From an uncultured Thermoanaerobaculia bacterium (GTDB lineage: Bacteria > Acidobacteriota > Thermoanaerobaculia > Multivoradales > J023): a stretch of 43,732 bases of DNA. The notes under the pieces are model-generated. The model had not been told where the DNA came from and ran no database searches. It saw only the letters and a program-made list of their open reading frames with translations. This document shows positions 1,961 to 32,702 of the stretch, in pieces. Position 1 is the stretch's first letter; every line of letters starts with the position of its first letter. The stretch is taken from NCBI GenBank assembly GCA_964565225.1, contig CAZMEL010000024.1, forward strand, positions 1 through 43,732. The letters run 5' to 3'. Position numbers and translations under genes: made by a program.

Positions 1961-1973
1961 CGCTTCTGGGTTC

Positions 1974-5965: not shown

Positions 5966-6010
5966 GGAAGGGTGATCTGTGCCGGAGCGCCGGGGGCCAC
6001 CTGGACGGAG
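5384..6010. repeat. Perfect tandem direct duplication, 2 x 312 bp (5384-5695 and 5696-6007), with 3-bp GAG microhomology at the junctions.
   Basis: Base-by-base comparison shows the two copies are identical by eye over 312 bp. Each copy contains the last about 45 nt of the giant upstream gene, the ATGA start/stop overlap, and the first 267 nt of the oxidoreductase gene. The unit length is divisible by 3, so the oxidoreductase reading frame is preserved. Confidence 0.85.
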
Positions 6011-10107: not shown

Positions 10108-10294
10108 GATTCCTCCAGCATGGAACGGTTTCCCTGGCCGATAGATCTCCAGGGATGTATACGATAGCGGATGGGAGGGCGTTGCATGCCCTGGACGGAG
10201 CTCTCCCGCGTCCGGTCGCAGGTCTCCCTACGATTTCGTTTCGAACGAAGAAGAGAAATAGATTTCGTGGAGGCCTCTCGATCGTGCCGGGCCC

Positions 10295-11584: not shown

Positions 11585-11609
11585 TTCTCGGGATCCGTGG
11601 GTATCGAGC

Positions 11610-11963
11610 TCAGTGCAAGGCGTCGATCTGGCGAATCTCGATCGTGCCCTCGTATGCGAGGTGAGGGCAGCTCTTCGAGATCTCCACCGCTTCGTCGTAA
11701 TCGGCGGCGCGAATGGCGAAATAGCCGCCGATCACTTCCTTGGACTCGCTGTAGGGCCCGTCGATCACCCGCACTTTCCCCTGGTCGGGGCGCAGGACGC
11801 GACCTTCTTCGTCGACCAGCTTGTTGCTGCCGATGAGCTTGCCGGCCGCCTCGAGAGAATCCCCCCAGGCCTTGTATCGTTCGATGATCTTCTGCATCTC
11901 CTCCGGGCTCATCTCGCTGAAATCGAGGGCGTTGTCGTAGAGCAGTAGCAGGTAGTCGGCCAT
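11610..11963 (-). CDS. YciI-like (YCII-related domain) protein, 117 aa.
   Basis: MADYLLLLYDNALD...WGDSLEAAGKLIGSNKL...GGYFAIRAADYDEAVEISKSCP is the characteristic YCII-domain signature. Perfect AAGGAG RBS 7 nt upstream of the ATG. Sits immediately upstream of the ECF sigma gene on the same strand. Confidence 0.8.
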   Translation of the reverse strand: MADYLLLLYDNALDFSEMSPEEMQKIIERYKAWGDSLEAAGKLIGSNKLVDEEGRVLRPDQGKVRVIDGPYSESKEVIGGYFAIRAADYDEAVEISKSCPHLAYEGTIEIRQIDALH

Positions 11964-12004
11964 CTGAATCTCCTTGTTCGGATTGTAAGGGGCTCTTCGC
12001 GAGC

Positions 12005-12017
12005 CGGAAAGACTTTC
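12005..12017. promoter_or_regulatory. Perfect inverted repeat GGAAAG-a-CTTTCC, about 45 bp upstream of the yciI-like ATG, in the divergent yciI/VOC intergenic region.
   Basis: The palindrome was read directly at 12005-12017 (ccGGAAAGaCTTTCgtc). Its position upstream of the YciI/ECF-sigma operon suggests an operator or an ECF -35-like (GGAAx) element. I found no matching -10 element. Confidence 0.25.
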
Positions 12018-12165
12018 GTCGCGCGGAGGCCGGACGTCGGCTTGCGGCCTTGGGTGCCGAGCTCTCTACGCGTTCGAGGGGATGACGAACGGGCCCGGAG
12101 GAGAATCGACACTCGCCGAAGATTTCTCGAGAAATTCGCGGTTGACGTGGCGTAGGCTCCGGATC

Positions 12166-12567
12166 ATGCGACAGAAGATCGGCAGCCTCACGCTCCTGGT
12201 CGCCGACTACGACGAGGCGATCGACTACTACACCCGGATCCTCGGCTTCGAGCTGCTGCAGGACACGCCCCTGAGCGGCGGCAAGCGGTGGGTGCTGGTG
12301 GCTCCGCCCGGCTCGTCCGAAACGGCCTTGCTCCTGGCGCGGGCCGCAACACCGCAGCAGAAGGCGCAGATCGGCTGCCAGGCAGGAGGCCGGGTGTTCC
12401 TGTTCCTTCACACCGACGACTTCCGGCGCGACTATCGGGCGATGAGGTCTCGCGGTGTGCGATTTCTGGAAGAGCCCCGGGAAGAGGTCTACGGTACGGT
12501 GGCCGTTTTCGAAGACCTCTACGGCAATCGTTGGGATCTGCTGGAGCTGGCCGGGGAAGGGGAGTAG
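12166..12567 (+). CDS. VOC-family (glyoxalase/bleomycin-resistance/dioxygenase fold) protein.
   Basis: MRQKIGSLTLLVADYDEAIDYYTRILGFELLQD...RVFLFLHTDDFRRDYRAMRSRGVRFLEEPREEVYGTVAVFEDLYGNRWDLLE is typical of the VOC beta-alpha-beta-beta-beta module. I chose the ATG at 12166 over the longer ORF-track start at 12082. Confidence 0.7.
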   Translation: MRQKIGSLTLLVADYDEAIDYYTRILGFELLQDTPLSGGKRWVLVAPPGSSETALLLARAATPQQKAQIGCQAGGRVFLFLHTDDFRRDYRAMRSRGVRFLEEPREEVYGTVAVFEDLYGNRWDLLELAGEGE

Positions 12568-12834
12568 CTCTACTTTGTCAGATTCTCTCGCGAGGTCGAG
12601 TCGGCGTTCCTTCCGCCAGGTCTCGAAGGGTCGCGTCGGCTGCGGAGGCTGCGGAAGCTCTCCTGGCGCTGTGTTCCGAAGGCTTCTTCGGCACGGTCCT
12701 CGTTGACCCGCTCGACCGGGCTCCAGGAACGCCGACTCTTACGAGAGCGGGGTCGAGATCTGGCAAGGTAGGAGTTGGCGGGTGGGAGAGGCCCGAGCCT
12801 CCGGGGTGGAGACTCGGGCTCGAGAATCAGCGAA

Positions 12835-13767
12835 TCAGAAGCAGACCGCTCCCGGAGGGCCGATGAAGGGGAAGGAGCAGAAGCCACCCTGGTAGAGGTA
12901 GCAGTAGCTGAACGGATAGGTGACGGTGGTGGTGGTGCTCGTCGTGCCGTCACAGTTGTTGGTGGTGGTGGTGGTGGTGACCTGGTAGTTGGCGCGCGAG
13001 AACACGAAGTAGGCGCCGTCGAAGATCCACTCATAACACTCGAAGCCACCGAGCCAGGTGTAACCCAGGAAGGCGGTGCTCGTCTGGGTGGTGGTGGTCG
13101 GGCAGACCGGCGGCGGCGGGTCGCAGTTGTTCACGCAAGAAAAGTACTGGCTGTTGCACTGGCCGCAGCTCGGGCGCAGCTCGGGAGCACCGGTGGTCAG
13201 GCCACGGTCACCTTCGCCCTGCAGGGGAATCTCGCAACCGGCCTGGTTCAGGCACTGGTACCACTGGAGCTCACACTGGAGCTCGCAGTTGCCGCCGTTC
13301 TGCGGCGGGGTCTCGCCCCGCGCCAGGCTGGCGTCGAAACGCAGGCCAACGATCCGGGAGCCATTGCTCAGCAGGCCCTGGCTATCGGAAGCGATCTGGC
13401 TCAGATCGAGATCGGCCAGCACCTGATCGGCGCTGGTGACCCGGACCACCACCTGCGACGAACGCGCTTCGGTCATGGTGACGAAGCTTTCCTGTGCGTC
13501 GGGGCTGGAGGCGAGAATCGGCAGGGCGAACGCCCCTTCGTCCCCTTCGGCACCGAGGGTGACCGCTTCTTCGGTGTGCACCAGGTTACCGTCGACGAAG
13601 ACCTCGATCAGCATCGGCGCACCGACGGCGAGTCTCTCGTCGATCTCCAGGAGGAGCGGCTGGAGATCAGCCGCCGGGGTACTCTGCGGCTGGAGGGCGG
13701 ATGCTCCCGCGGCGCTGGCCGTCAGGGCCAGGAGACAAAGGGTCAAGGTACAAAGATTCTTACGCAT
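12835..13767 (-). CDS. Secreted hypothetical protein (310 aa) with a Cys-rich C-terminal half and poly-Thr linkers.
   Basis: Signal peptide MRKNLCTLTLCLLALTASAAGASA. The C-terminal half contains about 20 Cys (CELQCELQWYQCLNQAGCE..CGQCNSQYFSCVNNCDPPPPVCP..) and Thr runs (TTTTQTST, TTTTTTNN, TTSTTTTVT). The Thr runs are encoded by (GGT)n/(ACC)n microsatellites, for example (GGT)6 at 12961-12978. I recognise no known family. Confidence 0.5.
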   Translation of the reverse strand: MRKNLCTLTLCLLALTASAAGASALQPQSTPAADLQPLLLEIDERLAVGAPMLIEVFVDGNLVHTEEAVTLGAEGDEGAFALPILASSPDAQESFVTMTEARSSQVVVRVTSADQVLADLDLSQIASDSQGLLSNGSRIVGLRFDASLARGETPPQNGGNCELQCELQWYQCLNQAGCEIPLQGEGDRGLTTGAPELRPSCGQCNSQYFSCVNNCDPPPPVCPTTTTQTSTAFLGYTWLGGFECYEWIFDGAYFVFSRANYQVTTTTTTNNCDGTTSTTTTVTYPFSYCYLYQGGFCSFPFIGPPGAVCF

Positions 13768-13985
13768 AAGTAAAGGTTCTCCTTTTCCAAGAAGTAATGG
13801 ATGAGGAGACGCTATGGCAAAACGGTTCCCCTCGCAGGCTCTCCGCCTGCCAATTTATTGTTACGCCCCCTCTGGACTCGTAAATTTTGGCCTGAAACTC
13901 TAATCATTGCAAGCCAAATCCGGGCCTTCCAGATGAATCGTCAGGAGCGATGAACGGCGAGTGCCGTTGAGCCGTCTGGAGGAAG

Positions 13986-16900
13986 CTACTCGGTGCTCAG
14001 GTCTCGTGTGTCGATTCGTCGCAGGGAGAGAACGAGACCTTTCATCATGTCGAGGTATTTGAGAGTGCGATCGAGGTGTTTGGTGAGCTTGCGATCGTCT
14101 GCGATCCCTTCGCTCTTGAGATGCCGGCCGATCCCCTGGACGAGAGGTAGCAGGTTCTCGTCGATGGAGACGGCCAGGCGACCGAGCACGTCGTGCACGC
14201 CGGGTTTGAGGGTCTGGATGATCTCGCGGCCTTTGGGGGCCTCGGCGAGGCTGCGCAGGGTGTCGTCGAGCCTTTCGAGGTAGGGCGAGAGATCGGCGGA
14301 TGCCGGGGTGGCTTCCGCCGCGGCCGCCGGCAGCGCGGGAGGGCGCCGTTCGGCGATGGTGGCGATGGACCGTGCCAGGGCCTCGAAGTGCGGGGCCAGG
14401 TCCGCGGCAGGCGCCCTCTCTCCATTGCCGAGACCCGCAAGGGATTGCCCCAGGTGGTCGAGGCGCTCGACCACCGCGGCCAGCTGCTGGGAAACCAACC
14501 GGGCTCCGTTCTCGAGTCGCGGGGCCAGGTCGTCGGCCGAGGTCGGCTCGGCCGCGAGCCCCTGGAGGGTTTTCTCCAGGCCCGAAACGAGTGGTGCGAG
14601 CGCCGACTCGAGGGCTCGTTCCAGGCGTTGCATCTGCAGCTCGGTGGTCTCGGCGTCCGCGTCTGCCCGGTTGTGGCTCTTGGCGGCTCCGGCGAGGGTG
14701 TCGCCGATGTGGTGGAGGCGTTCGGAGACCAGGCCGATCTGGCCGATGAGCCGGGTGGCGGGGTCGTCCTCGGCGCCACCCATGGCCTGCACTCGCGCGA
14801 AACCGCGTTTGATCTCTTCCCAGCGCTGTTCCTGCTCCGTGGTCATGACTCCCCGTAGCTCCGCCAGCTTGAGCAGGTTGTGCTCGGCACCGGTGGTCAG
14901 GGTCTGGGCCTCGCCCTGGTAGTGGTCGTCGACCAGGGACTCCAGCTCCCGCTCGTTCATCACCGCCACGATTTTCTCGGCCAGCTTGTTCATGTTGCGG
15001 TAGGAGCCCTGGAGCTGGAATCGCGGCTCGGTGCGGAAGGCGTCGTCCTGGGAGGCGGAGGAGATGTACTCCTGGTTCACGGCGAGCAGGATCTGCTGGA
15101 TTCGCAGCAGCTTGCGGAGCACCGAGAGCATCTCTTCGAGCTCTACGCCGGAGTATTCGTGGCTCAGCTGATCGGCGGCCTGGCCGTTGCCGGCAGCCAT
15201 GGCGAAGAGCTTGTGGATGTCGCCGGGCTCCCGGGTGGTGAGGGGAGCGAGCGCGGGGTTCGAGGTCAGAGCGTTCTCGAGATAGCTGAGCGCGAACACT
15301 TCTTCTCGACCCTCGAGGATGTCGCCGAGATTGTAGGTGTCGGCGCGGTTGGCGAGCATGTCGGGAATCTGGAACTTCTCCCCCGCCTCGGTGTAGGGAT
15401 TGCCCGCCATGCAGATGGCGAATCGTTTGCCTCGCAGGTCGTAGGTGCGGGTGCGTCCCTTCCACACGCCTTCGATTCGTCGCTGGGCGTCGCAAAGGGA
15501 GATGAACTTCTGCAGCAGCTCGGGATGGGTGTGCTGGATATCGTCGAGGTAGAGCAGCACGTTGTTGCCCATCTCGAGGGCGAAGTTGATCTTCTCGACC
15601 TCTTGCCGGGCGGTGGCGTTCGGAGCTTCGCTGGGATCGATGGAGGTGACCGCATGGCCGAGGGCGGGGCCGTTGATCTTTACGAACACCATCCCCAGGC
15701 GGTTGGCGATGTACTCCATCAGGGTGGTCTTGCCGTAGCCCGGGGGCGAGATGAGCAGCAGGAGCCCCATCTGGTCGGTGCGTTTGCCCTCGCCGAGGGA
15801 TCCCATCTGTTTCGCCAGGTTGTCGCCGAAGATGGGAAGGTAGACCTCGTTGATCAGCCGGTTGCGCACGAAGGCGCTCATGACCTTGGGCTGGTACTCG
15901 CCGAGCCGCAGCTCCCGGCGCTTGGTCTCGAGCAGCTGGTGTCGTACCTCCTGGTAGTGCCGGAAGCGAGGCACCCGCTGGCTGCGAAAGGTGGTGAGCC
16001 GGGCCAGGAACTCGTCCAGGCGCAGGGTCAGCTTGCGTTCCTTGATACGCGGATGTTGCCCCAGGAGATCTTCGACCACGAGCTCCTGCAGCCCGCTGTG
16101 GGGGCGGCGCTCGAGGCGCCGGGTGGTGAGCAGAGAAGCCACGACCTCGTCGCGCGCGCGGGCCAGCGCTCGGAGCTTCGGATCCCCGCCGCGGGCGAGG
16201 CAGGCGTCGAGCCAGGCGGTGGTGAGCCGGTGGCGGTTGGCGAGGTCGTTCTCGAGCTCGCCGAGGTCGTCCTGGAAGGAACGCAGGTCAGCGTTTTCCT
16301 TGAGAAAGGAAGTGAAGGCCTTCTCGAGCTCGGCTGCCTCGCCGCTGGTGGTGAAACGGACGGGATGTTGGGTCAGCTCCTCGAAGAGGTACTGACCCGC
16401 CTGGCGAGCGGCTTCTTCGTCGACCTCGAGGCCGTGTGTCGTAAGGAACTCTGTTGAAGCCCGCGACAGCTCTTCGGCGAGCTCGGTGATCGCCGGGCTG
16501 TGGCCCAAGCGCGCGCGCAGACGGCCGAGGCTCTGGGCCTGGCGTTCCCAGGTGGCCCGGGCGGTCTGCTCGCTGAAGAACGCCCAGAACAGGCAGGCCA
16601 GTGATCTCGCGGCCGGCGTGAAACGCAGGAGGTCGGCGGTGCCGTAGAGAGCGAGCAGCTTCTCCAGGATCAAGGTGGCATCGTGGTCGTGCAAACCGCG
16701 CTCGTAACCCTCTTCGTAGCGCTCGCTCGACCACCGCCGGACCACTGCCAGGAGCTGGTCGCGATCGAGGGCGGCCTGTTGCAGCCGGGCCAGGTCGAGG
16801 CCGGCTTCGCCTGCTTCGGCGGCGGCCAGCAGGCAGGCGGCCAGGTACTCGCCGCGGTAGACCCGGGGCGTCTCGGAGACGAGCAACTGGTTCCAGACGT

Positions 16901-19664
16901 CCCGGGTCTGGTTGAACTCGGGGTCGTCGAGCACCTCGTAGTAGTCGGTGCCGGTGAGGTGCAGCGCCATCTGCAGATCGGATTCACGCTCGCCGGTGCG
17001 AGGCACCAGGGTGAGATCGAAGGGCTGGGTGTTGACGCTGAAGCGATGGCGACCGAGCTTGAGAACCTCGGCCCCTCCTTCGAAGATCTCCTGCCGATCC
17101 CGCAGGGACCGGGCCGCGTCTTCCTTGGCGGCCTTGAGACGCGACTCCAGCTCGTCGGCCTTGACGCTCTCCTGGATCTTCCGCAGCTGGCCGGCGAGGT
17201 CTCGCACCTTGGCGACCATGGCGTCGCCGACGAAGTAGGTGTTGAGCTCGTCGGCATCGCCGAGGGCCGACGCGCGCCGCACGATGCCCTGGAGGATCCG
17301 GTCCGCGGCCTGGAGCATGCGCCCGGCTCGCCGCTGGCGCTCGTCGAGCAAGGCCTGCTTGCGCGAGCTGAAGGCTTCGTAGACGTCTTCGCGCTTGGTG
17401 GCGAGCTGGTCCAGGAAGTCGTCGAACTCACCGAAGCGACTCTCGAGCTCTTCGAGCTGCAGCAGCAGCTTGGAGAGCTGGTCGTCACACTTCTCCGGTG
17501 TGTCACACATGGCCAGGGCGCCGCTGACCGCCTGGCCGAGGAGCTTGAACTGCGCCCCGAATTCCGCGGCTCCCTCGGACGTCATCAGCTCCTTGCGTCG
17601 GGCCTCCAGCAGGGCGCGGCCGCGGTTGAGGCCCGAGAGGATCTCGGAGACGTCTTCGAGGATCCGGGTGCGAATGGTGGCGTCGGAGATCTCGAGCCCG
17701 CCGATGACCTCGGTGAGCAGCTCCAGGCCGTTGCCGACACCCTCGAAGGCTTCGCGGATCGGTTCGGCGGCAGCGGCGGTCTCGACGGTTTCGATCTCCG
17801 CGACCTGTCGCTCGATCTGGTGCAGGTAGGGAGCCAGAGCGGAGTCTTCTTGCAGGAAACCGACCATGCGATCGCTGAGCTCGTCGAATTTCTCGGCCAG
17901 CAGAGTCTCGAGCTCGTCGAGCTTGCCGAGATCGACATAGCGAAGCTCGCGCAGGGTGAGCAGGTGCCCGCGCTGGTGACGCAGGCGATCGAGGGCGTCG
18001 ACGAAGCGGTCGACCGAGGCGAGCTCCTGCCGCCGCAGCTCTTCCCACAGGGTGTCGACATCTTTGGACGAGGCGTCGACGGCCTCGGCGGCCCGGCGGC
18101 GGAGAGCCTGGACTTTCGCGAACTCGTCGACGATCAGCTCGGCGGTGGCGCGGATCTCGGCCAGGGGGACCGACAAGGCCTCGGCCTCGTCTTCGGTCAG
18201 CCAGTAGTAGGCGTCGGCGGCGCGCACGGTGGAGGCGATCAGGTCTTCGTAGCCCACGGCCGACGGGGTCTGCTCCTCGATGGCGCGACAGATGGAGAGG
18301 GAGTCGGAGATCCCGCGGACCAGGTCGGGATTGCCGAACGTCTCCAGAAAGGTACCTCTTGAAGGGACCTGGGCGGCGTGCAGATCGCTCATGAACGGTG
18401 TCTGCCAGATCTGCATCGGGTGCACCCGGGTGGGCTCGTCGGATTGGGAATTGAAGATCACCATCCGACCGTCTTCGAAAAAGCTGTAGCCGTGGCAGTA
18501 GATGGGGTTCTGCACGTCTTTGCGGATCATGTTGTACGACAGGAGGATGCTGCGGCCGCTCTCGCGCTCGTGGAAGATGAAGAGCACGTCCTCACCGTTG
18601 GGTGAGCGCACCTTCTTCAAGAACTCCATGGCCGCCACGTCGCCTTCGAAGGTCTTGGTCTCGCCGCTCTGGAGGTAATACCCGCCGGGGAAGATCAGCC
18701 CGTGGTCTTCGGGCAGAAGCAGGCACGAGCGGCCGATGGCATCGATCCGGTCGACCTGCTGGTTGCGCGTGTTGAAGACCAGGAAACGTTCGACCTCTTC
18801 GTTGTAGGGCCTGATCTTCAGCAGGATCAGGGTCCCTACCCGGGCGTAGGCGATGTCGGCATCGTCGAGGCTCTGTCGGGGATCTGCGACCTCTTCCCGG
18901 TAGATTCCGAGCCCGTCTTCCGTGTTGTCCTCGACCTTGACCGTCAGGTCGCCACCCACCGTCTCGACGAAGACCTCGTCGAGAATGTTGACGTGTGGAT
19001 GCCGCCCGTGCACATGGTCCTCACGGGTGGTGGGGGTCCACTCGAAGTCGTGGGACGGCGGGAAGGTATGGTCGCGCTCGCCGCGACCATCGATGTACCG
19101 GACCCTGCCGTCGGGCTCCACGGCCCAGCGGAAAACCCGCAGATCCTTGGCACCGGCGCCGATCTGGAAGACGGCGAGCAGCTTGGTTTCGGTCCGGCGG
19201 ATCTGGAGCAGCCGCGCGTTCTTGTAGTACTTGAAGAGCTCGCGGAAATCGCTGACGAAGCTGCTGTCGGCCAGGTAGTTGGACCGATCGTCGCCGGAGA
19301 CCTCTTCGAACGAAAACCGCCCCTCCGACTCCTGGAAGGAATGCAGGCTGAGGACGTCGTCGACCTTGGTGTCGGTGCGTAGGCCGAGGAAGACCTGGTA
19401 GCCGAAGAGAAGATACCGGCCGGTGGCGCGGATGTCCCGAGGCACGCAGTTGTTCTCGGTGCGGATCCGCTCGTTGCCGATCACCTTCATCTCGGTGCCG
19501 CCGAACAGCTCGAGCCGGCGGCTGTTCAGGCGATCGGCGCGTTGCCGCAGGTCGGCGGCGTGCTCGCGCAGCCGGTCGCGGAGAATTTCGTAGGTGCCGT
19601 GCTCCAGGGAGCTGGCTTCTCCAGCGGCCTCGGTGTCGGCGGCTGTCTGGCTCTCTTCACTCAT
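13986..19664 (-). CDS. Giant (1892 aa) multidomain protein. It has a beta-rich N-terminal domain, about 800 aa of coiled-coil/helical region, an AAA_5 (MoxR/dynein/McrB-type) ATPase module, and a C-terminal coiled-coil region.
   Basis: Walker A is LLLISPPGYGKTTL (about aa 1304-1316, nt about 15726-15746). Walker B is NVLLYLDDIQH. The sensor/AAA_5-like segment is FAICMAGNPYTEAGEKFQIPDMLANRADTYNL. The N-terminal 60-420 is beta-strand-like (DG/G-rich, no NTP motifs). The long helical stretches are rich in E/R/L/A. The gene starts 60 bp downstream of the flotillin stop on the same strand. Confidence 0.7.
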   Translation of the reverse strand: MSEESQTAADTEAAGEASSLEHGTYEILRDRLREHAADLRQRADRLNSRRLELFGGTEMKVIGNERIRTENNCVPRDIRATGRYLLFGYQVFLGLRTDTKVDDVLSLHSFQESEGRFSFEEVSGDDRSNYLADSSFVSDFRELFKYYKNARLLQIRRTETKLLAVFQIGAGAKDLRVFRWAVEPDGRVRYIDGRGERDHTFPPSHDFEWTPTTREDHVHGRHPHVNILDEVFVETVGGDLTVKVEDNTEDGLGIYREEVADPRQSLDDADIAYARVGTLILLKIRPYNEEVERFLVFNTRNQQVDRIDAIGRSCLLLPEDHGLIFPGGYYLQSGETKTFEGDVAAMEFLKKVRSPNGEDVLFIFHERESGRSILLSYNMIRKDVQNPIYCHGYSFFEDGRMVIFNSQSDEPTRVHPMQIWQTPFMSDLHAAQVPSRGTFLETFGNPDLVRGISDSLSICRAIEEQTPSAVGYEDLIASTVRAADAYYWLTEDEAEALSVPLAEIRATAELIVDEFAKVQALRRRAAEAVDASSKDVDTLWEELRRQELASVDRFVDALDRLRHQRGHLLTLRELRYVDLGKLDELETLLAEKFDELSDRMVGFLQEDSALAPYLHQIERQVAEIETVETAAAAEPIREAFEGVGNGLELLTEVIGGLEISDATIRTRILEDVSEILSGLNRGRALLEARRKELMTSEGAAEFGAQFKLLGQAVSGALAMCDTPEKCDDQLSKLLLQLEELESRFGEFDDFLDQLATKREDVYEAFSSRKQALLDERQRRAGRMLQAADRILQGIVRRASALGDADELNTYFVGDAMVAKVRDLAGQLRKIQESVKADELESRLKAAKEDAARSLRDRQEIFEGGAEVLKLGRHRFSVNTQPFDLTLVPRTGERESDLQMALHLTGTDYYEVLDDPEFNQTRDVWNQLLVSETPRVYRGEYLAACLLAAAEAGEAGLDLARLQQAALDRDQLLAVVRRWSSERYEEGYERGLHDHDATLILEKLLALYGTADLLRFTPAARSLACLFWAFFSEQTARATWERQAQSLGRLRARLGHSPAITELAEELSRASTEFLTTHGLEVDEEAARQAGQYLFEELTQHPVRFTTSGEAAELEKAFTSFLKENADLRSFQDDLGELENDLANRHRLTTAWLDACLARGGDPKLRALARARDEVVASLLTTRRLERRPHSGLQELVVEDLLGQHPRIKERKLTLRLDEFLARLTTFRSQRVPRFRHYQEVRHQLLETKRRELRLGEYQPKVMSAFVRNRLINEVYLPIFGDNLAKQMGSLGEGKRTDQMGLLLLISPPGYGKTTLMEYIANRLGMVFVKINGPALGHAVTSIDPSEAPNATARQEVEKINFALEMGNNVLLYLDDIQHTHPELLQKFISLCDAQRRIEGVWKGRTRTYDLRGKRFAICMAGNPYTEAGEKFQIPDMLANRADTYNLGDILEGREEVFALSYLENALTSNPALAPLTTREPGDIHKLFAMAAGNGQAADQLSHEYSGVELEEMLSVLRKLLRIQQILLAVNQEYISSASQDDAFRTEPRFQLQGSYRNMNKLAEKIVAVMNERELESLVDDHYQGEAQTLTTGAEHNLLKLAELRGVMTTEQEQRWEEIKRGFARVQAMGGAEDDPATRLIGQIGLVSERLHHIGDTLAGAAKSHNRADADAETTELQMQRLERALESALAPLVSGLEKTLQGLAAEPTSADDLAPRLENGARLVSQQLAAVVERLDHLGQSLAGLGNGERAPAADLAPHFEALARSIATIAERRPPALPAAAAEATPASADLSPYLERLDDTLRSLAEAPKGREIIQTLKPGVHDVLGRLAVSIDENLLPLVQGIGRHLKSEGIADDRKLTKHLDRTLKYLDMMKGLVLSLRRIDTRDLSTE

Positions 19665-19724
19665 TGCGTCGCTCGGATTCCTTCGGGCGTCTCAGGGATC
19701 GATCGGCTTCGGCACGTCGCGGGC

Positions 19725-21782
19725 TCAGTCCTCGCTCTGCCGCGGATCCCCGAGCTTGAGGGAGTCGACACCGAGGCGTTCGGCCACCTCCAGCAACTGC
19801 CCCATCTTCACCTGCCGGTCGCCCTCGCTGCGCTCCGCGAGGCCGTGGAGCAGAGAGGCGAGAGAAAGATTTCGCAGGTCGCCGCTCGACACTGCCGGGC
19901 GGGTGAGGACGTCTTTGAGATCCTCGGTGAAGCTGGACTCGCCTTCGAGATAGTCGTGCAGGAGCTTCTGGCCGGTTGCGCTCTTGTCGATGAATCCGTC
20001 GACCGCCTTGCCGTGGCTGATGGCGCCCACCAGGCGATCGAAGAAGATGTCGGAGCCGCCGACGATATCGATGTTCGCGGCCTTGAGCCCCTCGGCCACC
20101 AGCGACGCCTGGGCCTCGGCCACCTTCCGGTGAGCCTCGACCTTCGCCAGCTCGATGTCTCTGCCCGTCTCGAGGCGCAGCCGGTACTCCTCGTGCTCGC
20201 GGCTCGCGGCGTCGAGAGCTTTCATGGACTCGGCCTTCTCGGCCAGGCCCTCGGCTTCGGCCTTGAGCTTCTCGCGGATCCCCTCGGCCTCGGCCAGCCC
20301 CTTCTCCTTCAACACCAGAGCTTCGATCAGGCGCTGCTTCTCCTCTGCCTGGGCGTCGGCTTCCTTGATCCGTGCCTCGGCGAAGCCCATCTTCTCGGTG
20401 GCCTGGGCATCGGCTTCCTTGACCCGAACCTCGGCCAGGCCGAGCTTCTCGATGGCTTCGGCGTCGCGCTCGCGGACCTGCACCGCTGCCAGACCCGCGG
20501 CGGCGCTCTCGGCCTGGGTGCCCTCGGCCAGCCGGATCTTGGCCTTGGCCTCGCGGTCGGCGGCCTCGAGCTGCGCCTCGGCCAGGATCAACTGCTCGCG
20601 GCCCTTGAACTTGGCGGCCTCCTCGGCGGCCTCGGCGGCCTTGATGTTCTTGACCAGCTCTTCCTGGGCCTCGGCCTCGGCGGCGATGATCGTCGCTTCT
20701 TTGCCTCGGCTTGCCTCTTCCACCAACCGCAGACGTTTGATCGCTTCTTCTTCCTCGGCCACGGTTTTCTCGACCGAGATCCGTTCCCGGACCACCGTTG
20801 CGATATCTCGTTTCTCCTGCTCCACCTCTTTGTTCTTGGCGATGGTCTGGAGCTCGGTCTCCCGCTCGCGATCGATCACCTCGAGCATGCGGTCCTTCTC
20901 GACCCGCTCGGTCTCGACGGCGACCACCCGTTCGCGATTCTTGCGCGCCACCTCGACCTGGCGATCCATGTTCTCCTGCTGGATCGCCACCTCTTCTTCG
21001 GTCTTGATGCGGGCGGTCTCGGCCTTGAGCTTCTCTTCCGCCTGGATCTTCTGGGTTTCGGCCTCTTCCCGTGCCTTGACGCTATCGATCTCGCGTCTCT
21101 GCTTGGCCTCGGCGTCGGCCTTCTGGCGTTCGAGCTCGAGGATGGCCTCGGCGGCTTCCACATCCTGCTTGGTGATCAGCTTTCTCTCGTTGTTCTGGAA
21201 TTCGTTGGTCTTCACGTGCTCGATGGCGGTGAGCTCGGTGATCTTGCGAATACCCTGGGCATCGAGGATGTTGTGCTGGTCGAGCTGGGTCAGAGGGGTC
21301 TGCTCGAGATAGTCGATGGCGCAGTCTTCGAGGGAGTAGCCGTTGAGGTCGGTGCCGATCACACGGATGATCTGGTCGCGGAACTCGTCGCGTTTGGTGT
21401 AGAGATCGACGAAGTCGAGTTGTTTACCCGCGGTCTTGAGGGCCTCGGAGAACTTGGCAGCGAAGAGGATCTCCAGGGTCTTCTGGTCGGAGGCCCGGTT
21501 GCAGCCGATGTTCTGCGCCACCTTGATCACGTCTTCCTCGGTCTTGTTGACCCGGACGAAGAAGGTGACCTTGATGTCGGCGCGGATGTTGTCCTGGCAG
21601 ATCAAACCGTCGGAGCCGCTGCGGTCGATCTCGATGGTCTTCACCGAGATGTCCATCAGCTCGGCCTTCTGCATGATGGGGATCACCAGGCCGCCGGTGA
21701 AGCTGACGTTCACCTGACCGGACATGACGTTGCTGACGATGAGAGCTTTTCCCTGCTCGACTTTTGTGATGAGAAATGCCAT
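19725..21782 (-). CDS. Flotillin-family SPFH/Band-7 protein (YqiK/FloT-like), 685 aa.
   Basis: The SPFH core begins ALIVSNVMSGQVNVSFTGG...ICQDNIRADIKVTFFVRV (compare the start of the YqiK SPFH domain). It is followed by about 350 aa of EA/KE-rich coiled coil (AEAEAQEEL, EADAQATEK, EADAQAEEK repeats) and a C-terminal flotillin tail. There is no N-terminal hydrophobic hairpin. Confidence 0.85.
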   Translation of the reverse strand: MAFLITKVEQGKALIVSNVMSGQVNVSFTGGLVIPIMQKAELMDISVKTIEIDRSGSDGLICQDNIRADIKVTFFVRVNKTEEDVIKVAQNIGCNRASDQKTLEILFAAKFSEALKTAGKQLDFVDLYTKRDEFRDQIIRVIGTDLNGYSLEDCAIDYLEQTPLTQLDQHNILDAQGIRKITELTAIEHVKTNEFQNNERKLITKQDVEAAEAILELERQKADAEAKQRREIDSVKAREEAETQKIQAEEKLKAETARIKTEEEVAIQQENMDRQVEVARKNRERVVAVETERVEKDRMLEVIDRERETELQTIAKNKEVEQEKRDIATVVRERISVEKTVAEEEEAIKRLRLVEEASRGKEATIIAAEAEAQEELVKNIKAAEAAEEAAKFKGREQLILAEAQLEAADREAKAKIRLAEGTQAESAAAGLAAVQVRERDAEAIEKLGLAEVRVKEADAQATEKMGFAEARIKEADAQAEEKQRLIEALVLKEKGLAEAEGIREKLKAEAEGLAEKAESMKALDAASREHEEYRLRLETGRDIELAKVEAHRKVAEAQASLVAEGLKAANIDIVGGSDIFFDRLVGAISHGKAVDGFIDKSATGQKLLHDYLEGESSFTEDLKDVLTRPAVSSGDLRNLSLASLLHGLAERSEGDRQVKMGQLLEVAERLGVDSLKLGDPRQSED

Positions 21783-21977
21783 GGGGTCTCCTTGACGTGA
21801 AGGCTCGAAACGTAGAGTCGGTCACTCCGGCGTCGGTCTCGGACGCGGAGTCGAGCCCCGGCCTCTCGTTCGACTCGGAAGGCTCGAAAAATCTATCTGC
21901 AGGCGCCGTGTCCTCGTCCAGAGAAACATTGGACGGGCACCCTTTCCGGGTTGTGGTCGAATCTTAGCCGTTCGAGG

Positions 21978-22679
21978 TCACGAAGTATCTGCCGGCAAGA
22001 GATGCTCGTCCATGGGCATGATGAAGAAAATCTCCTGCAGCGGATCGTATTCGAAGATCAGCGCCCGGGCATTGCGACGCAGCATCGGATCGGGCTCGTG
22101 GCTGCGGACCTGGATCAGGAGCTCGACTCCTTCGTCGTCGAGCACCTCGGCCTGGCCGAACTTCTGGTCGACGGTGAGGGTCGTGACCCGGCAGGTGCGT
22201 CCCACGAGGTCGCGGCGATGGGTCACGGGGGCGATGCGGAAGATCTTCCGCAAAGGGCGGATGGCGAGTCCGGTGGCCCCGACGGACAGGACCGAGGCAC
22301 CCAGGCCGATTCCGAAGAGGATCAGGAGCCCTCCGCCGGCCAGAAACGGAACCGTTGCCGCCAGCCAGGTGCCCGCCAGGGAGAAGAACCAGCCGAAGAA
22401 GGCGAGGAGCGAGCCGGTGATGGCGAGCGGAACCCCGCTCAGGCCCAGGCAGCCGTCGCGACCCTCGGTCAGACCGTCCGCGGCGCCTTCGACCAAGCCT
22501 TCTGCCGTCCCGTCGACCGCGCCTCCGAAGAAACCCTCGATCAGGTCGAGGAGACCATCGAATATTTCGAGGTCCAGAAGGCCGAGGAGAACCGTCAGCC
22601 AGTACAGGCAGACCAGGCCGACGAACACGGTGAAAACCGTGGTGGGCATGGTAAACGCGGCATCGTAGAGGGCTTTCAT
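21978..22679 (-). CDS. NfeD/YqiJ-like inner-membrane protein (DUF1449-like). It has an acidic Gly/Asp-rich segment, transmembrane helices and a C-terminal OB-fold.
   Basis: N-terminal TM (TVFTVFVGLVCLYWLTVLLGLL). Acidic DxxxD/G region (LDLEIFDGLLDLIEGFFGGAVDGTAEGLVEGAADGLTEG). Two more hydrophobic helices. C-terminal beta-barrel-like NfeD tail (GRTCRVTTLTVDQKFGQAEVLDDEGVELLIQVRSHEP). In E. coli the yqiJ-yqiK pair has this same gene order. Confidence 0.7.
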   Translation of the reverse strand: MKALYDAAFTMPTTVFTVFVGLVCLYWLTVLLGLLDLEIFDGLLDLIEGFFGGAVDGTAEGLVEGAADGLTEGRDGCLGLSGVPLAITGSLLAFFGWFFSLAGTWLAATVPFLAGGGLLILFGIGLGASVLSVGATGLAIRPLRKIFRIAPVTHRRDLVGRTCRVTTLTVDQKFGQAEVLDDEGVELLIQVRSHEPDPMLRRNARALIFEYDPLQEIFFIMPMDEHLLPADTS

Positions 22680-22748
22680 GAATCACTGTTCCAGGAATCG
22701 GACATGTTTTCCTCTACGGGGGGTGAGTACCGGGTATTCGTTCGGTCC

Positions 22749-23060
22749 CCTCCGCCCAGGTGCCCTCCGCCCAGGTGCCAGCCACCTGTGCCGATCCACG
22801 GGTGCCCTCTCCATAGGTGGCAGCCACCTGTGCTGATCCACGGGTGCCAGCCACCTGTGCTGATCCGGCCACCTGTGCTGATCCGGCCACCTGTGCTGAT
22901 CCGGCCACCTGTGCCCTCTCCACAGGTGCTGCCACATAGGTGCCAGCCACCTGTGATGATCCGGATCTGATGATCCGCGGGTGCCAGCCACCTGTGATGA
23001 TCCGGATCTGATGATCCGCGGGTGCCAGCCACCTGTGATGATCCTCGGGTGCCACTCGAA
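22749..23060. repeat. REP/BIME-like array: at least 9 direct, imperfect copies of a unit with core GCCACCTGTG(C/A)TGATCC. It also has a 2 x 15-mer (CCTCCGCCCAGGTGC), a 3 x 18-mer (CCGGCCACCTGTGCTGAT), about 2.5 x a 41-mer (CGGGTGCCAGCCACCTGTGATGATCCGGATCTGATGATCCG), and two inverted copies that form hairpins.
   Basis: I read the core motif starting at about 22781, 22824, 22851, 22869, 22887, 22905, 22946, 22988 and 23030. Inverted copies CACAGGTG (22921) and CATAGGTGGC (22811) create stem-loops, for example CACCTGTGccctctcCACAGGTG at 22908-22930. There are no unique spacers. The array lies between the start of yqiJ and the RAYT-like gene. Confidence 0.75.
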
Positions 23061-23142
23061 GGCTGGCTGCGGACGCCTCGAAGCGACTTCTTGAAGAATT
23101 GGCTGTCGAATCACGAGCACTCTTTCGTCTAGGAAGGGTGTC

Positions 23143-24078
23143 ATGAGTAGACCACTACGAAACGTTCGTCCAGACGGTACTTGCTTCGAGATCACCACTC
23201 GAGTCATGCAGGGCAGATTCTTGCTGCCTCCCGGCGATCACTTCCGACGAATTGCCATCGGCATTCTCGCACGAGCCAAGGAGCTGTATCCCATTGAGCT
23301 CTATGGGTTTTGCGGCTTGTCGAACCACGTCCATCTACTGGTCGGCGCCCAGGACGTGGACCTCCTCGCAGGTTTCATGTGTCACCTGAAGAGCAACCTG
23401 GCTCGGGAGGCTGGCAGAATCGTTGGCTGGAGGGAGAAATTCTGGGGGCAACGGTACCGCGCGATCGAGATCAGTGACGAAGAGGAGGCCTGGGTCGCCC
23501 GATTGCGCTACTTGCTGAGTCATGGGGTCAAGGAGAATCTGGTGCTCTGTTGTCGAGACTGGCCAGGGTTGCAGTGCATCGACGCTCTGACCACGGGAAA
23601 GCCTCTGGAGGGTGTCTGGATCGATCGCACTCGAAGGACGGCGACGGGAGAACCTACGAATCATTCGTACGTCCTGGAGCTCGACCCCATCCCTTGTTGG
23701 CGGCACCTGTCGAAACAGGAGCATCAGGCACGAATTGCCGGCCTCGTTACCGAGATCGATGAAGAGAATGCCGAGCGGATCGTCCTGGGCGGCGGGGCAC
23801 CGCCTCTCGGGATCGAGGCGATCCTCGCCCAGGATCCTCACGACAAGCCGGAAGACTTCGAGCCCAAACCGGCGCCAGGCTTTCACGCAGCGACCCGATC
23901 GGTTCGGGCCCTGATGAAAGAGGCCTATCGGCTTTTTGTCGAGGCGTATCGTGCGGCCGCGAAGCGACTGCGAGCGGGCGATCTGACCGTCGAGTTTCCT
24001 CCGGGGTGTTTTCCGCCACCTCGCCGCTTCGTGTCGGCCCGATACGGGACGTCCGCTCCTCGCGATGGTCCCCTGTAA
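23143..24078 (+). CDS. IS200/IS605-family HuH Y1 transposase-like protein (REP-associated tyrosine transposase, RAYT-like), with an approximately 160-aa C-terminal extension.
   Basis: HuH motif ...GLSNHVHLLVGA. Downstream signature FWGQRYRAIEISDEEEAWVARLRYLLSHGVKENLV, matching the family pattern FWQ-RY...I-DE.....Y-..NPVK..LV that contains the catalytic Tyr. It is immediately flanked on the 5' side by the REP-like array. Confidence 0.65.
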   Translation: MSRPLRNVRPDGTCFEITTRVMQGRFLLPPGDHFRRIAIGILARAKELYPIELYGFCGLSNHVHLLVGAQDVDLLAGFMCHLKSNLAREAGRIVGWREKFWGQRYRAIEISDEEEAWVARLRYLLSHGVKENLVLCCRDWPGLQCIDALTTGKPLEGVWIDRTRRTATGEPTNHSYVLELDPIPCWRHLSKQEHQARIAGLVTEIDEENAERIVLGGGAPPLGIEAILAQDPHDKPEDFEPKPAPGFHAATRSVRALMKEAYRLFVEAYRAAAKRLRAGDLTVEFPPGCFPPPRRFVSARYGTSAPRDGPL

Positions 24079-24098: not shown

Positions 24099-26390
24099 TC
24101 AATAGCCCCAGGAGGGCCAGAGCAGCTCCGTGCCCGTCACCTTGCCCAGGCCTTCGGAGTACATGCGTGCCGTTTCCACGAGGCCGGGAGACAGCAGGTG
24201 GCGTCCGTCGTGGTCCTGCAAAAAGAGGTGTTTCCAGGTCTCTCGGGTCCCGAGCTGCACCTTCCGGTTCTTCACTTGGTGATAGAGGCGCTCCAGGCGT
24301 AGCTCGAGCGCTGCCAAGCCGACGGTCGTAAAGTAGGAGCCCGACCTCTGTGTTGCCAGCCACTCGCTGATCTCTTCGGGGGTCTCGAACCGGTGGACCT
24401 GGTCCGCCAGGTTCCTGCTCGGCTCTTTGGCCTGGCTGATCAGGCCGTGGGCCCGCAGATCGATGAAGCCATTGTTGGCGATGGTCCAGTCGCGCAGGGT
24501 CTCGTAGGAAGTGCCGGCCTCCTCGGCCGTTTTCTGCCAGGAGAGGTGCAGATCCTGTGCCGTCGCGATCGCCATATCGAGCGGGGCCGCGTAGGGGCCC
24601 ACGAGGATTCGATCTCCCTTGCCCGACGGGTCGGAATAGAGGATCGGGATCCCGAGAGATGTGATGGCCTGGAGGTATCTGCCGATCTGGGTGGCCAGGC
24701 GCGCCAGAAATTTTTCACGACCCGGCAGGCGGCGCCCTTGCTGGCGCGGATCGAACCCCAGCAGATGCCCGGCCGATTCCATCGAGCGGGTCTCGCAGAG
24801 CTCTGCCAGGAGAAGTGCCAGGCGTTTGTGGTCGAGCTCGGCGAGATCTTCGAACGAAGGGATCCGCGTCTCTCGCCAGAGAAACTCGTCGGGATCGGTG
24901 AGGCTTCCAAGGAGGGTCTGCTCTTCGTAGGTCTCGAATTTCTGGCCGAGCTCTCGAAGCCGCAGAAGCAACATGATCAGGCCGAGCTCGTGCAGGCGTG
25001 CCTGGTGGGTGGCGGATCCCAGGGCTTGAAACGCCTGGAGGTTGAAGGGGCCGTGGTGGGCCCGCATCAGCTGGGGGTAGTTGTCCAGGAGGCGGAGGGC
25101 GAAGTAGGAGTTCTCGGTTTCGCCGTAGTAGCAGATCTTGTCCTGGAACCAATCCCGCCTTCGCTCGGGGCCGAAGAGGGCGTGGCGAACCAAGACCATG
25201 GCCAGCTCTTCGGGGATGGCGACCTTCATGACGTTGTAGAGAGCTATACAGTTGGCGACCGAGAAGAGGCCGTTCTCGCCCGACCGGATCGCGGCGTCCA
25301 CGATCAATTCGCGACCACCACCGAACTCGAGGGGCTCGTTTTCCGGGGCCCCTTCGCCGGGAGACAGGGGAAGACGGTGGAACGGATAGAGGAGGATGGA
25401 CTCGGAATCGAGGTCGGCCGGGCGTACCGGGTTGTGGTCGAGCGCGGCGAGTCGGCTCTGCAGAGTGCCCCGGATGCCTCGATCCGCAGGTAGGTGGCAC
25501 CGGAACTCCACGGCGTCGATACCGATGGCGGCGGCGGTGACCAACACGTCGAAGCCCTGGTCGATATAGAGCTGGGTCAGCTCGTCTGCGAAGTACTTCT
25601 TGTCGACCAGGCGTTTGCCGAGGGCGCTGTGGGCAAAACCGAGGCGGATCTCCGCCTGCCCTCCATCGACCCGATACATTCCACCCACGGCCGTGGTGTG
25701 GGCGATCACCACGTGGCGGGCGTAGCGTTGCTGAATGACCGCCAGACCGCGGACGAAGGTCTCGAGGTAGTGCTTCTTGATTCTTTGTTTCGCCGGATGA
25801 TCGAGGCCGTGCTCCGCCGTCAGCCGGTCGATCGCGACGAGGGTGTAGGTCGCCACGCTGGGAAGCGGAATCGCCACGGCGACCGAGTGCAGAAGATCGC
25901 TGTCGAGGCCCTTGGCGAAATCGAGGAAAGGACACCGCTGGTTGGCGAAGTAGTCCTTGAGCGTGGCCTCCAGGTCGAAGGAAGCTCCATCCTCCGTACG
26001 GCGCCGCTCCACGGTATCGGGAAGATCTTGAGGAATTTCGAGCTGCAGCAGGGAGAAGTGCAGGTCGATCCGATCGTCGATACGGTAGTGCCTTCGCGGC
26101 TCGACTTTCTCGATATCCACCTGGTCTTCGAGAGCCAGATACAGGCGGCTGACGAACTTGGTGATCTCTTTGTCGGAGAGGCCCGTGGCATGGATTTCGC
26201 CGGTCAAGGGCCGCTGCCGGCAGGTCTTGGACAGGAGAATCAGGCGGCAGAGCTCCATGATCGAGGCTCCACCCACGGCTCCGGTGCCACCGAAGACCAC
26301 GAAACGCACGGGGTGTCGGCCGCCACCCGGGAGCAGGCGGGTCGACAACAGGTGTTCTAGAGATTCGAATTCGTGATAGAGCGTCCGCAT
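24099..26390 (-). CDS. Hypothetical 763-aa protein with an N-terminal NAD(P)-binding Rossmann motif.
   Basis: VRFVVFGGTGAVGGASIMEL (GxxGxxG after a beta-strand) lies near the N-terminus. The rest is helical with no recognisable catalytic motifs. I chose the ATG at 26390 (MRTLYHEFESLEHLL) over the longer ORF-track start. Confidence 0.5.
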   Translation of the reverse strand: MRTLYHEFESLEHLLSTRLLPGGGRHPVRFVVFGGTGAVGGASIMELCRLILLSKTCRQRPLTGEIHATGLSDKEITKFVSRLYLALEDQVDIEKVEPRRHYRIDDRIDLHFSLLQLEIPQDLPDTVERRRTEDGASFDLEATLKDYFANQRCPFLDFAKGLDSDLLHSVAVAIPLPSVATYTLVAIDRLTAEHGLDHPAKQRIKKHYLETFVRGLAVIQQRYARHVVIAHTTAVGGMYRVDGGQAEIRLGFAHSALGKRLVDKKYFADELTQLYIDQGFDVLVTAAAIGIDAVEFRCHLPADRGIRGTLQSRLAALDHNPVRPADLDSESILLYPFHRLPLSPGEGAPENEPLEFGGGRELIVDAAIRSGENGLFSVANCIALYNVMKVAIPEELAMVLVRHALFGPERRRDWFQDKICYYGETENSYFALRLLDNYPQLMRAHHGPFNLQAFQALGSATHQARLHELGLIMLLLRLRELGQKFETYEEQTLLGSLTDPDEFLWRETRIPSFEDLAELDHKRLALLLAELCETRSMESAGHLLGFDPRQQGRRLPGREKFLARLATQIGRYLQAITSLGIPILYSDPSGKGDRILVGPYAAPLDMAIATAQDLHLSWQKTAEEAGTSYETLRDWTIANNGFIDLRAHGLISQAKEPSRNLADQVHRFETPEEISEWLATQRSGSYFTTVGLAALELRLERLYHQVKNRKVQLGTRETWKHLFLQDHDGRHLLSPGLVETARMYSEGLGKVTGTELLWPSWGY

Positions 26391-26491: not shown

Positions 26492-26508
26492 CTCCATCAT
26501 ATATGGAG
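26492..26508. promoter_or_regulatory. Inverted repeat CTCCAT-N5-ATGGAG in the divergent promoter region between the 763-aa gene and the CRTAC1-family gene.
   Basis: ctccatCATATatggag was read at 26492-26508, in a 180-bp, comparatively AT-rich divergent intergenic region. It also overlaps a possible alternative ATG (26503) for the CRTAC1 gene. Confidence 0.25.
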
Positions 26509-26571
26509 ATCGAGGCTTCGTGCCGAGCTCCGGTGAGTTTGACCAACAGGGGAACGGGTTATGATTCTCCA

Positions 26572-32625: not shown

Positions 32626-32700
32626 AGGTGCCACCCACCTGTGATGGGTGGGTGATTTAGAGGTGCGGGCACCTTAGAGGTGCCACCCACCTGTGATTCG
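32622..32700. repeat. Second REP-like element: two direct copies of CTTAGAGGTGCCACCCACCTGTGAT with nested inverted repeats (CACCCACC/GGTGGGTG, AGGTGC/GCACCT), lying between convergent genes.
   Basis: The 25-mer occurs at 32622-32646 and 32672-32696. The spacer contains GGGTGGGTG (the reverse complement of CACCCACC) and a third partial copy TTAGAGGTGC. It shares the 20-mer GGTGCCA(C/G)CCACCTGTGATG with the 22.9-kb array. It sits exactly between the stop codons of two convergent genes, so it may also act as a bidirectional terminator hairpin. Confidence 0.65.
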
Positions 32701-32702
32701 AC

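Follow-up and report, generated by a model that had tools for sequence, protein, structure and literature searches.

Bacterial flotillins and PspA/ESCRT-III proteins play a central part in organizing and repairing membranes. To our knowledge, no energy-consuming partner of bacterial flotillins or PspA is known beyond the AAA+ neighbours of PspA/Snf7. SPFH proteins, including flotillins, oligomerize into scaffolds or cages. CesT/Tir–PspA operons carrying a band-7/flotillin protein, a YqiJ/YuaF protein with three transmembrane (TM) segments and a beta-propeller AAA+ ATPase were described by Ravi et al. (mSystems 2024, first posted 2020; PMC11237479), who also report widely distributed 'abbreviated' operons without PspA and occasional AAA+ neighbours of PspA/Snf7. 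In Pseudomonas aeruginosa, PA3732–PA3729 was named as a biofilm-associated cluster in 2008, in which PA3730 is a 23 kDa protein with TM domains and PA3729 a 76 kDa protein (PMC2587700). The cluster was extended in 2024 by reverse-transcription PCR and proteomics to the six-gene bacABCDEF (PA3732–PA3727), which forms one transcript with co-regulated proteins and has a putative sigma-54 promoter (PMC10948618). In bac mutants, biofilm formation, swarming, rhamnolipid production and virulence are impaired, and osmotic shock induces PA3731 (PMC2587700; PMC10948618). A related three-gene module was evaluated here in a 43,732-nt stretch of DNA (the window) from an uncultured Thermoanaerobaculia bacterium (contig CAZMEL010000024.1). 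The module very probably represents the PspA-less 'abbreviated' form of the widespread operon of a YqiJ/NfeD-type protein, a YqiK/flotillin SPFH protein and a DUF3686 AAA+ ATPase. The operon is real, biologically meaningful and already described, and the window holds a variant of it whose flotillin has no membrane anchor. A preliminary description of the window had suggested that the module might be an undescribed machine and knew of no characterized operon with such a component; both statements are superseded by the report of Ravi et al. and by the bac operon.

The layout of the module in the window is as follows.

21978..22679, minus strand: YqiJ/NfeD-like membrane protein, 233 aa (open reading frame, ORF)
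21783..21977, minus strand: spacer of 195 bp between the YqiJ-like and flotillin-like genes (sequence read directly)
19725..21782, minus strand: YqiK/flotillin-like SPFH protein, 685 aa (ORF)
19665..19724, minus strand: spacer of 60 bp between the flotillin-like and giant genes (sequence)
13986..19664, minus strand: giant cytoplasmic ATPase, 1892 aa, DUF3686 family (ORF, Pfam)

The gene order on the minus strand was therefore YqiJ-like, flotillin-like and giant, with gaps of 195 and 60 bp, and the three ORFs, their coordinates and their strand were exactly as first described. The statement that no obvious terminator lies between the flotillin-like and giant genes also held, since neither terminator-like nor promoter-like sites were found in the two gaps by a consensus scan, and the counts of such sites across the region did not exceed those of shuffled controls. 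The 195-bp spacer was longer than its counterparts in close relatives (48–63 bp) and ended with a GGAG ribosome-binding site located 8 nt before the flotillin ATG. No frame of this spacer encoded a hydrophobic segment, and its RNA fold z-score of −0.14 denoted no unusual structure.

The linkage of the three genes was explored by a scan of one genome per species, which gave 563 relatives of the giant protein. A total of 80 loci were kept, from Acidobacteriota, Myxococcota, Actinomycetota, Gammaproteobacteria (Pseudomonas, Xenorhabdus, Methylomonas and others) and Planctomycetota, and adjacency was counted in the 71 loci whose upstream flank was 3.2 kb or longer. According to all-against-all clustering of the ORFs in the 80 loci, only three families were universal, namely the giant (78), flotillin-like (76) and YqiJ-like (70) families, and their order and shared strand were constant throughout. 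The flotillin-like gene was directly upstream of the giant gene in 67 of 71 loci by the strict count, and in 70 of 71 when three start-codon calling artefacts were counted, whereas the YqiJ-like gene was upstream of the flotillin-like gene in approximately 69 of 71. In the exceptional locus (L045), the flotillin-like gene (1323-3590) was 6.3 kb from the giant gene (9953-15736). The median gap was 31 bp for the flotillin-like/giant pair and 35 bp for the YqiJ-like/flotillin-like pair; the former pair overlapped in 19 of 67 loci and the latter in 14. Moreover, the module proteins were 50–70% identical across phyla with a stable gene order, and the ordinary neighbours varied by locus. The core order was also kept in annotated plasmid or chromid records from Hymenobacter (Bacteroidota), Deinococcus (Deinococcota) and the Pseudomonas megaplasmid pQBR103. 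Hence, the linkage of the three genes is not due to chance. The tight adjacency in 70 of 71 loci, the common strand and the frequent stop/start overlaps bear out the proposal that the giant protein is a recurrent and closely linked partner of the SPFH/NfeD pair, and the adjacency argues directly against the possibility that its homologues are never linked to SPFH/NfeD genes.

The wider operon context differed between clades. Genes for DUF2170 (YjfI, CesT-like) and PspA_IM30 were found upstream of the module in 13 gammaproteobacterial loci, and a rhomboid gene was near it in 9 such loci, downstream in 8 of them. In the Hymenobacter record, a 'Tir chaperone' gene and a PspA gene were upstream of the module. 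These recurrent PspA, CesT-like and rhomboid partners, together with polyamine genes, point to an envelope-stress signature and not to DNA-repair or defence partners. In the window, tblastn with PspA, DUF2170 and rhomboid queries gave nothing significant.

The same core is embedded in the bacABCDEF operon of P. aeruginosa. The published PA14 bacD/E forward primer matched exactly the 3' end of the flotillin-like gene in a Pseudomonas locus (L074), the bacC/D reverse primer mapped to the 5' region of the Pseudomonas flotillin-like gene, and the bacD/E reverse primer encoded PKNNCIA, which matches the DUF3686 motif RTENNCIARD ('NNCIA'). This primer mapping favours orthology between the bac genes and the module. 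PA3728 is listed as 'ATPase' and otherwise turned up in mutation lists only in the literature search. BacF would be a rhomboid, judging from other Pseudomonas loci.

Two single loci had unusual arrangements. On the P. fluorescens megaplasmid pQBR103 (L088; 86407-92281 of NC_009444.1), genes for a rhomboid, DUF2491, DUF350, DUF1190 and a glutathionylspermidine-synthase-like protein were upstream of the module. This set resembled E. coli yjfKLMC and joined both PspA-associated operon classes set out by Ravi et al. In a nanopore-assembled Archangium metagenome-assembled genome (MAG), the flotillin-like and giant genes formed one ORF (L024:7925-15529), which is either a fusion or an assembly error.

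The identity of the three proteins was evaluated from sequence and profile comparisons, by which they are homologous to YqiJ, YqiK and the DUF3686 ATPase family. The flotillin-like protein was composed of an SPFH region (residues ~1-200), a helical region rich in Ala, Glu, Lys and Arg (~200-560) and a conserved C-terminal part. It had no Pfam match even at E<=1, so the gathering score of Band_7 (PF01145) was not reached, and its match to the NCBIfam FloT model was weak. Band_7 was matched by 7 of 45 orthologues, with a best E value of 1.8e-9. E. coli YqiK was matched to the profile of the 45 flotillin-like members by hhalign with a probability of 99.9% (E 1.5e-32, 415 columns), which shows homology to SPFH proteins despite the absent Band_7 match.

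The 233-aa protein had three hydrophobic segments by hydropathy and an acidic loop rich in Gly, Asp and Glu. Its C-terminal domain aligned with the OB-fold region of YqiJ. No match to Pfam was obtained for the window protein even at E<=1, including NfeD (PF01957) and the YqiJ families (PF21001, PF07290), and weak matches were obtained among its 45 orthologues for YqiJ_N (5), YqiJ_OB (2) and NfeD (1). NCBIfam likewise gave no match for the window protein. The hhalign comparison of E. coli YqiJ with the family profile gave 91.9% (E 7e-7, 130 columns), and the alignment spanned the final membrane segments and the OB-fold region at the C-terminus. Sequence searches of PDB chains gave nothing useful for the flotillin-like or YqiJ-like proteins or their family profiles. 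As the two small proteins of the window had neither Pfam nor PDB matches, the names 'flotillin' and 'NfeD' given to them initially were not verifiable at face value; the family profiles, which matched YqiK and YqiJ, uphold them at the level of homology. The loop after the first membrane segment (residues ~40-75; also L082:4525-5304) was a variable acidic repeat of Asp, Glu, Gly and Ala, for example DAVDAVDAVDAMDALDGVDALDG in L082, and its length varied among close relatives.

The window flotillin-like protein differed from its orthologues at the N-terminus. It began with MAFLITKVEQGK, only six residues ahead of the conserved KVEQGKALIV motif. At that place, a hydrophobic N-terminal helix of 20-30 residues was present in all 44 orthologues aligned from genome loci, whereas hydropathy revealed no hydrophobic segment, and no N-terminal TM helix, in the window protein. 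The anchorless start was common to four relatives (L081-L084; 64-73% identity, giant proteins 64-67%), indicating a lineage variant rather than an artefact. The anchorless flotillin is thus a real lineage variant and is new here. In one of these relatives, the YqiJ-like and flotillin-like genes were separated by an additional 164-aa gene (L082:5322-5816), which duplicated the anchorless SPFH N-terminal domain only; this duplicate passed Pfam Band_7 (E 1.5e-13), whereas its full-length paralogue did not.

The giant protein was divided into the following regions.

18204..19553, minus strand: DUF3686 domain, residues 38-487, a long N-terminal helix followed by a beta-propeller-like domain
17589..17840, minus strand: DUF7902, residues 609-692, in the helical middle region (Pfam E 2.4e-26)
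14745..15785, minus strand: AAA+ module, residues ~1294-1640, with a helical lid after the beta-hairpin
13989..14687, minus strand: variable C-terminal tail, residues ~1660-1892 (alignment conservation, tblastn)

The Pfam match to DUF3686 (PF12458) was unambiguous, with 690.6 bits (cutoff 25), an E value of 1e-207 and profile positions 1-448 of 448. The matches to AAA (PF00004; 29.8 bits) and AAA_5 (26.2 bits, cutoff 22, E 8.8e-6), both at residues 1302-1425, were weak, the latter scoring below the former, and AAA_22 and RuvB_N also matched weakly within residues 1294-1425. In the PDB sequence search, the Walker A region alone was matched. With regard to the putative coiled coil of more than 1 kb in the preliminary description, residues 488-860 were rich in helix formers. 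The model of residues 860-1660 (predicted local distance difference test score, pLDDT, 86) contained a small beta domain, helical bundles (residues 935-1250) and a canonical AAA+ domain. The motifs of this domain were Walker A GYGKT (1309-1313), Walker B D1374-D1375, the sensor-1 candidate N1422 and the arginine-finger candidate R1440, and K1312, D1374/D1375, N1422 and R1440 were invariant in 51 homologues. On the basis of these invariant motifs and the modelled AAA+ fold, the giant protein is predicted to be an active ATPase. A beta-hairpin (~1396-1409) was located between helix alpha-3 and strand beta-4 of the model, and no beta-hairpin was found inside helix alpha-2. According to Foldseek, the PDB held only weak AAA+ matches; RuvB was matched with E ~5e-5, and the structural matches to ClpA, Lon, NorQ and dynein were as good or better. 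As judged from the model, the domain can be placed in the pre-sensor-1-hairpin group of AAA+ proteins but in no specific family. The earlier assignment to AAA_5 (MoxR/dynein/McrB-type) therefore stands as a Pfam match, but AAA scored higher and the implied family does not follow. Hydropathy gave no hydrophobic segment in the giant protein, which is predicted to be cytoplasmic.

In the C-terminal tail, the last ~80 residues were conserved and the rest was variable. Most actinobacterial homologues had no alignment to the tail, and their tblastn matches stopped near query residue 1650-1660. The giant family comprised more than 6000 clusters at 90% identity, labelled 'DNA repair ATPase' by databases, and spanned at least seven phyla. 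The DUF3686 domain had 775 representatives at 50% clustering and was always N-terminal in full-length proteins (1590-2036 aa).

The surroundings of the module were also explored, and the features upstream of it are given below.

22744..23061: REP-like (repetitive extragenic palindromic) repeat array, flanked by the RAYT gene on one side and by the start of the module on the other (direct-repeat families)
23143..24078, plus strand: gene for a RAYT-type (REP-associated tyrosine transposase; IS200-like Y1) transposase (Pfam Y1_Tnp)
24099..26390, minus strand: 763-aa protein that matched no Pfam model and has a Rossmann-like N-terminus, GGTGAVGG (ORF, homology)

The Y1_Tnp match (E 1e-5, 26.1 bits, cutoff 23) and the repeat array at 22744-23061 agree with the initial observation of a REP array and a RAYT gene immediately upstream. 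The 17-mer core of the GGTGCCAGCCACCTGTG-core repeat occurred 10 times in the window against 0 expected, and outside the array it recurred at 5152-5168 and 32627-32847. The RAYT gene and the array split the module from the 763-aa gene, and this insertion was absent in L081-L084. In these relatives, a homologue of the 763-aa protein (~760-807 aa) was encoded just ahead of the YqiJ-like gene in the same orientation (L081:653-3076, 70% identical to that of the window; L082:2190-4472; L083:2605-4902; L084:2759-5074). The REP/RAYT insertion between the module and the lineage-specific 763-aa gene is new here. The 763-aa family comprised ~370 clusters, mostly from Acidobacteriota MAGs, and its gene adjoined the module only in the anchorless-flotillin clade. 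At least 17 of its members were on contigs of the same lengths as contigs bearing homologues of the giant protein. The 763-aa gene was considered as a fourth core component and was rejected because distant members (35% and 53% identity) were located away from the module and none was found in the 80 genome loci. Its position may reflect lineage synteny, the meaning of which is uncertain.

A scan for the sigma-54 consensus gave one site with one mismatch, TGGCACCTATGTGGCA (22930-22945, minus strand), where 0.71 was expected by chance. The site was within the REP array, in the orientation of the module and ~250 bp ahead of the start of the YqiJ-like gene; the match was not above chance and hence was not treated as evidence. 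Downstream, a hairpin and an AT-rich stretch were located 3' of the giant-gene stop codon. The next gene encoded a Cys-rich secreted protein (12835-13767), and this neighbour position was not conserved at other loci. Judged from their translations, the genes at 5962-10107 (minus), 10295-11584 (minus) and 26503-28830 (plus) were ordinary-looking chromosomal neighbours; their products were a 1381-aa protein in which CarboxypepD_reg-like repeats are numerous, a sigma factor of the ECF type and a protein with FG-GAP/ASPIC-like repeats. Scans of the window for Rfam families and tRNA genes gave no matches.

On the best reading, the three proteins form an ATP-driven submembrane module for stress or remodelling; its mechanism was inferred. 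There is a high probability that the identity of the module and its membrane-associated role are correct, whereas the specific mechanism of a motor on a scaffold is possible but doubtful. In this mechanism, the SPFH protein would oligomerize into a submembrane scaffold or cage like other SPFH proteins, and the YqiJ-like protein would tether the scaffold to the membrane via its C-terminal OB-fold domain. As the flotillin of this lineage has no anchor of its own, the YqiJ-like protein would be the only tether. The giant protein may use its single AAA+ domain to assemble into a ring, the propeller and helical arms would engage the scaffold or clients, and ATP hydrolysis would drive assembly, disassembly or remodelling of the scaffold under envelope stress. 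The closest analogies would be FtsH inside HflK/C cages and Vps4 on ESCRT-III. The large family, the almost constant flotillin neighbour and the occurrence in a biofilm and virulence operon of a pathogen make the giant protein an obvious candidate motor. An unlikely, though conceivable, extension is that the giant protein is the dedicated ATP-driven assembly/disassembly motor of bacterial flotillin scaffolds, comparable to Vps4 on ESCRT-III, and that the flotillin of this lineage is soluble and reaches the membrane only via the YqiJ-like anchor, possibly with the 763-aa protein. If so, membrane recruitment of flotillin would be a regulated, ATP-dependent step. The anchorless flotillin could be a soluble entry point for biochemistry, and correcting the 'DNA repair ATPase' label and solving the complex would be useful.

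Several points weigh against the reading of an ATP-driven submembrane module. The interaction, localization and ATPase activity of the module members are predictions only. The identification of BacE (PA3728) as the orthologue of the giant ATPase was inferred from synteny, primer mapping, protein masses and the 'ATPase' label rather than from sequence alignment. Since genes for PspA, DUF2170 and a rhomboid are missing from the window, the link to envelope stress is borrowed from other clades. Moreover, the modelled AAA+ domain fits no functional clade and no aromatic pore loop was recognized in it; hence, the domain gives no ground for 'remodelling by threading'. The RAYT/REP insertion could have cut the module from its native promoter, and the loss of the flotillin anchor could mean an altered or reduced function.

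These last two points could be taken further, namely that the module is decaying in this genome, with its anchor lost, its upstream region cut by the transposase and REP array, and its genes poorly expressed or non-functional. The absence of the N-terminal helix present in 44 of 44 orthologues, the unusually long 195-bp spacer, and the position of the RAYT gene and array between the module and a gene that abuts it in relatives fit this view. However, none of the three ORFs is truncated or disrupted, the ATPase motifs are preserved and a good GGAG site precedes the flotillin ATG. Furthermore, four relatives with intact genes share the anchorless start, which argues for a selected lineage variant instead of a recent lesion, and the decay of the module is therefore highly improbable. 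It is hardly credible that the giant protein acts in DNA repair, as its NCBI and Pfam names would have it, with a flotillin/YqiJ neighbourhood unrelated to its function. The database names ('DNA repair ATPase', 'DNA repair protein'), the weak RuvB_N and RuvB matches, including that of Foldseek, and a LexA-family gene near the module on the Hymenobacter plasmid can be cited for it, but the likeness to RuvB did not extend beyond the P-loop region (residues 1294-1338), where the scores were ~21-22 bits and the cutoffs 27 to 299, and ClpA, Lon, NorQ and dynein equalled or exceeded it structurally. The giant protein had no detected DNA-binding or nuclease domain, its neighbours in 70 of 71 loci were membrane-associated proteins, and full-text searches for DUF3686/PF12458, and for 'DNA repair ATPase' with flotillin, found no papers. 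The name 'DNA repair ATPase' is unsupported.

The remaining alternative is an anti-phage or conflict system, in which the ATPase would sense infection and the flotillin and YqiJ-like proteins would serve as membrane effector or protection; the preliminary description had likewise listed a defence-type ATPase among the candidate roles. Large multi-domain NTPases are common in defence systems, the module is present on some megaplasmids and it adjoins a REP/RAYT element in the window. In addition, the module of L083 was flanked by toxin-antitoxin genes (RelE, HicA, ParE) and AAA_14/DUF4143, and that of L084 was followed by a gene for a helix-turn-helix protein with an M78 peptidase. Against these observations, PADLOC-DB 2.0 gave only P-loop-level matches of mad8 and IetA to the giant protein (E 2e-3 to 3e-3) and no matches to the flotillin-like or YqiJ-like protein. 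No relatives of the giant protein were found among 2.9 million viral contigs, and those in plasmids were limited to 13 of 72,556 records, mostly chromids and megaplasmids, with no viral or island association. The stable gene order, the identity of 50–70% across phyla amid ordinary, varying neighbours, and the envelope-stress partners described above also speak against defence, which is very unlikely and which the searches did not support beyond weak P-loop matches.

The reading of the module as an abbreviated flotillin–ATPase operon was finally set against known systems. The giant protein had an identity of only 10–20% to MoxR/AAA_5 proteins (CbbQ, NorQ, RavA) and to proteins of the HCLR clade (ClpA/B D2, Lon, HslU, RuvB). 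MoxR/AAA_5 proteins have a helix-2 insert and a VWA partner, whereas the model of the giant protein had no such insert and no VWA gene was among the conserved neighbours. Its Walker B motif was DD, not DE, and the ATPase formed part of a 1900-aa protein that also has a propeller and helical arms. With the RuvB equivalog models, the giant protein scored 20.8-22.1 bits against cutoffs of 282-299, in residues 1294-1338 only. HflK/C–FtsH and mitochondrial SLP2–YME1L–PARL combine an SPFH scaffold with an AAA+ machine, and the mitochondrial complex contains a rhomboid protease. SLP2–YME1L–PARL may thus be seen as a parallel to the set of SPFH, AAA+ and rhomboid genes in gammaproteobacterial loci, by analogy only. 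FtsH and YME1L are membrane-anchored AAA proteases of the classical clade, whereas the giant protein had no TM segment, no protease domain and another type of AAA+ domain.

The E. coli YqiJ–YqiK and B. subtilis YuaF(NfeD2)–FloT pairs likewise consist of an SPFH/flotillin protein and an upstream NfeD/YqiJ-type membrane protein. These operons have no ATPase gene, and E. coli yqiK is followed by sibD/ibsD. Compared with YqiK and FloT, the flotillin subfamily of the window was too diverged for Pfam Band_7, and the window protein had no TM helix. The likeness to bacABCDEF was closer, as BacC (23 kDa, TM), BacD (76 kDa) and BacE correspond to the order of YqiJ-like protein, flotillin-like protein and giant ATPase. 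The bac operon adds BacA (DUF2170/CesT-like), BacB (PspA-like), BacF and a putative sigma-54 promoter, none of which was found in the window. The operon of Ravi et al. (PMC11237479) agrees with the module in all three proteins and in how their domains are described, and the loci evaluated here reproduced both its PspA-linked and its abbreviated versions. The paper gives no mechanism or structure, and its passages on the operon do not mention the 763-aa neighbour. The YqiJ/YuaF-type protein with three TM segments and the adjacent, co-oriented genes of this operon were both present in the window. The flotillin described there carries a TM segment, whereas the proteins of the window and of L081-L084 do not; hence, the window module was assigned as a variant of the operon of Ravi et al.

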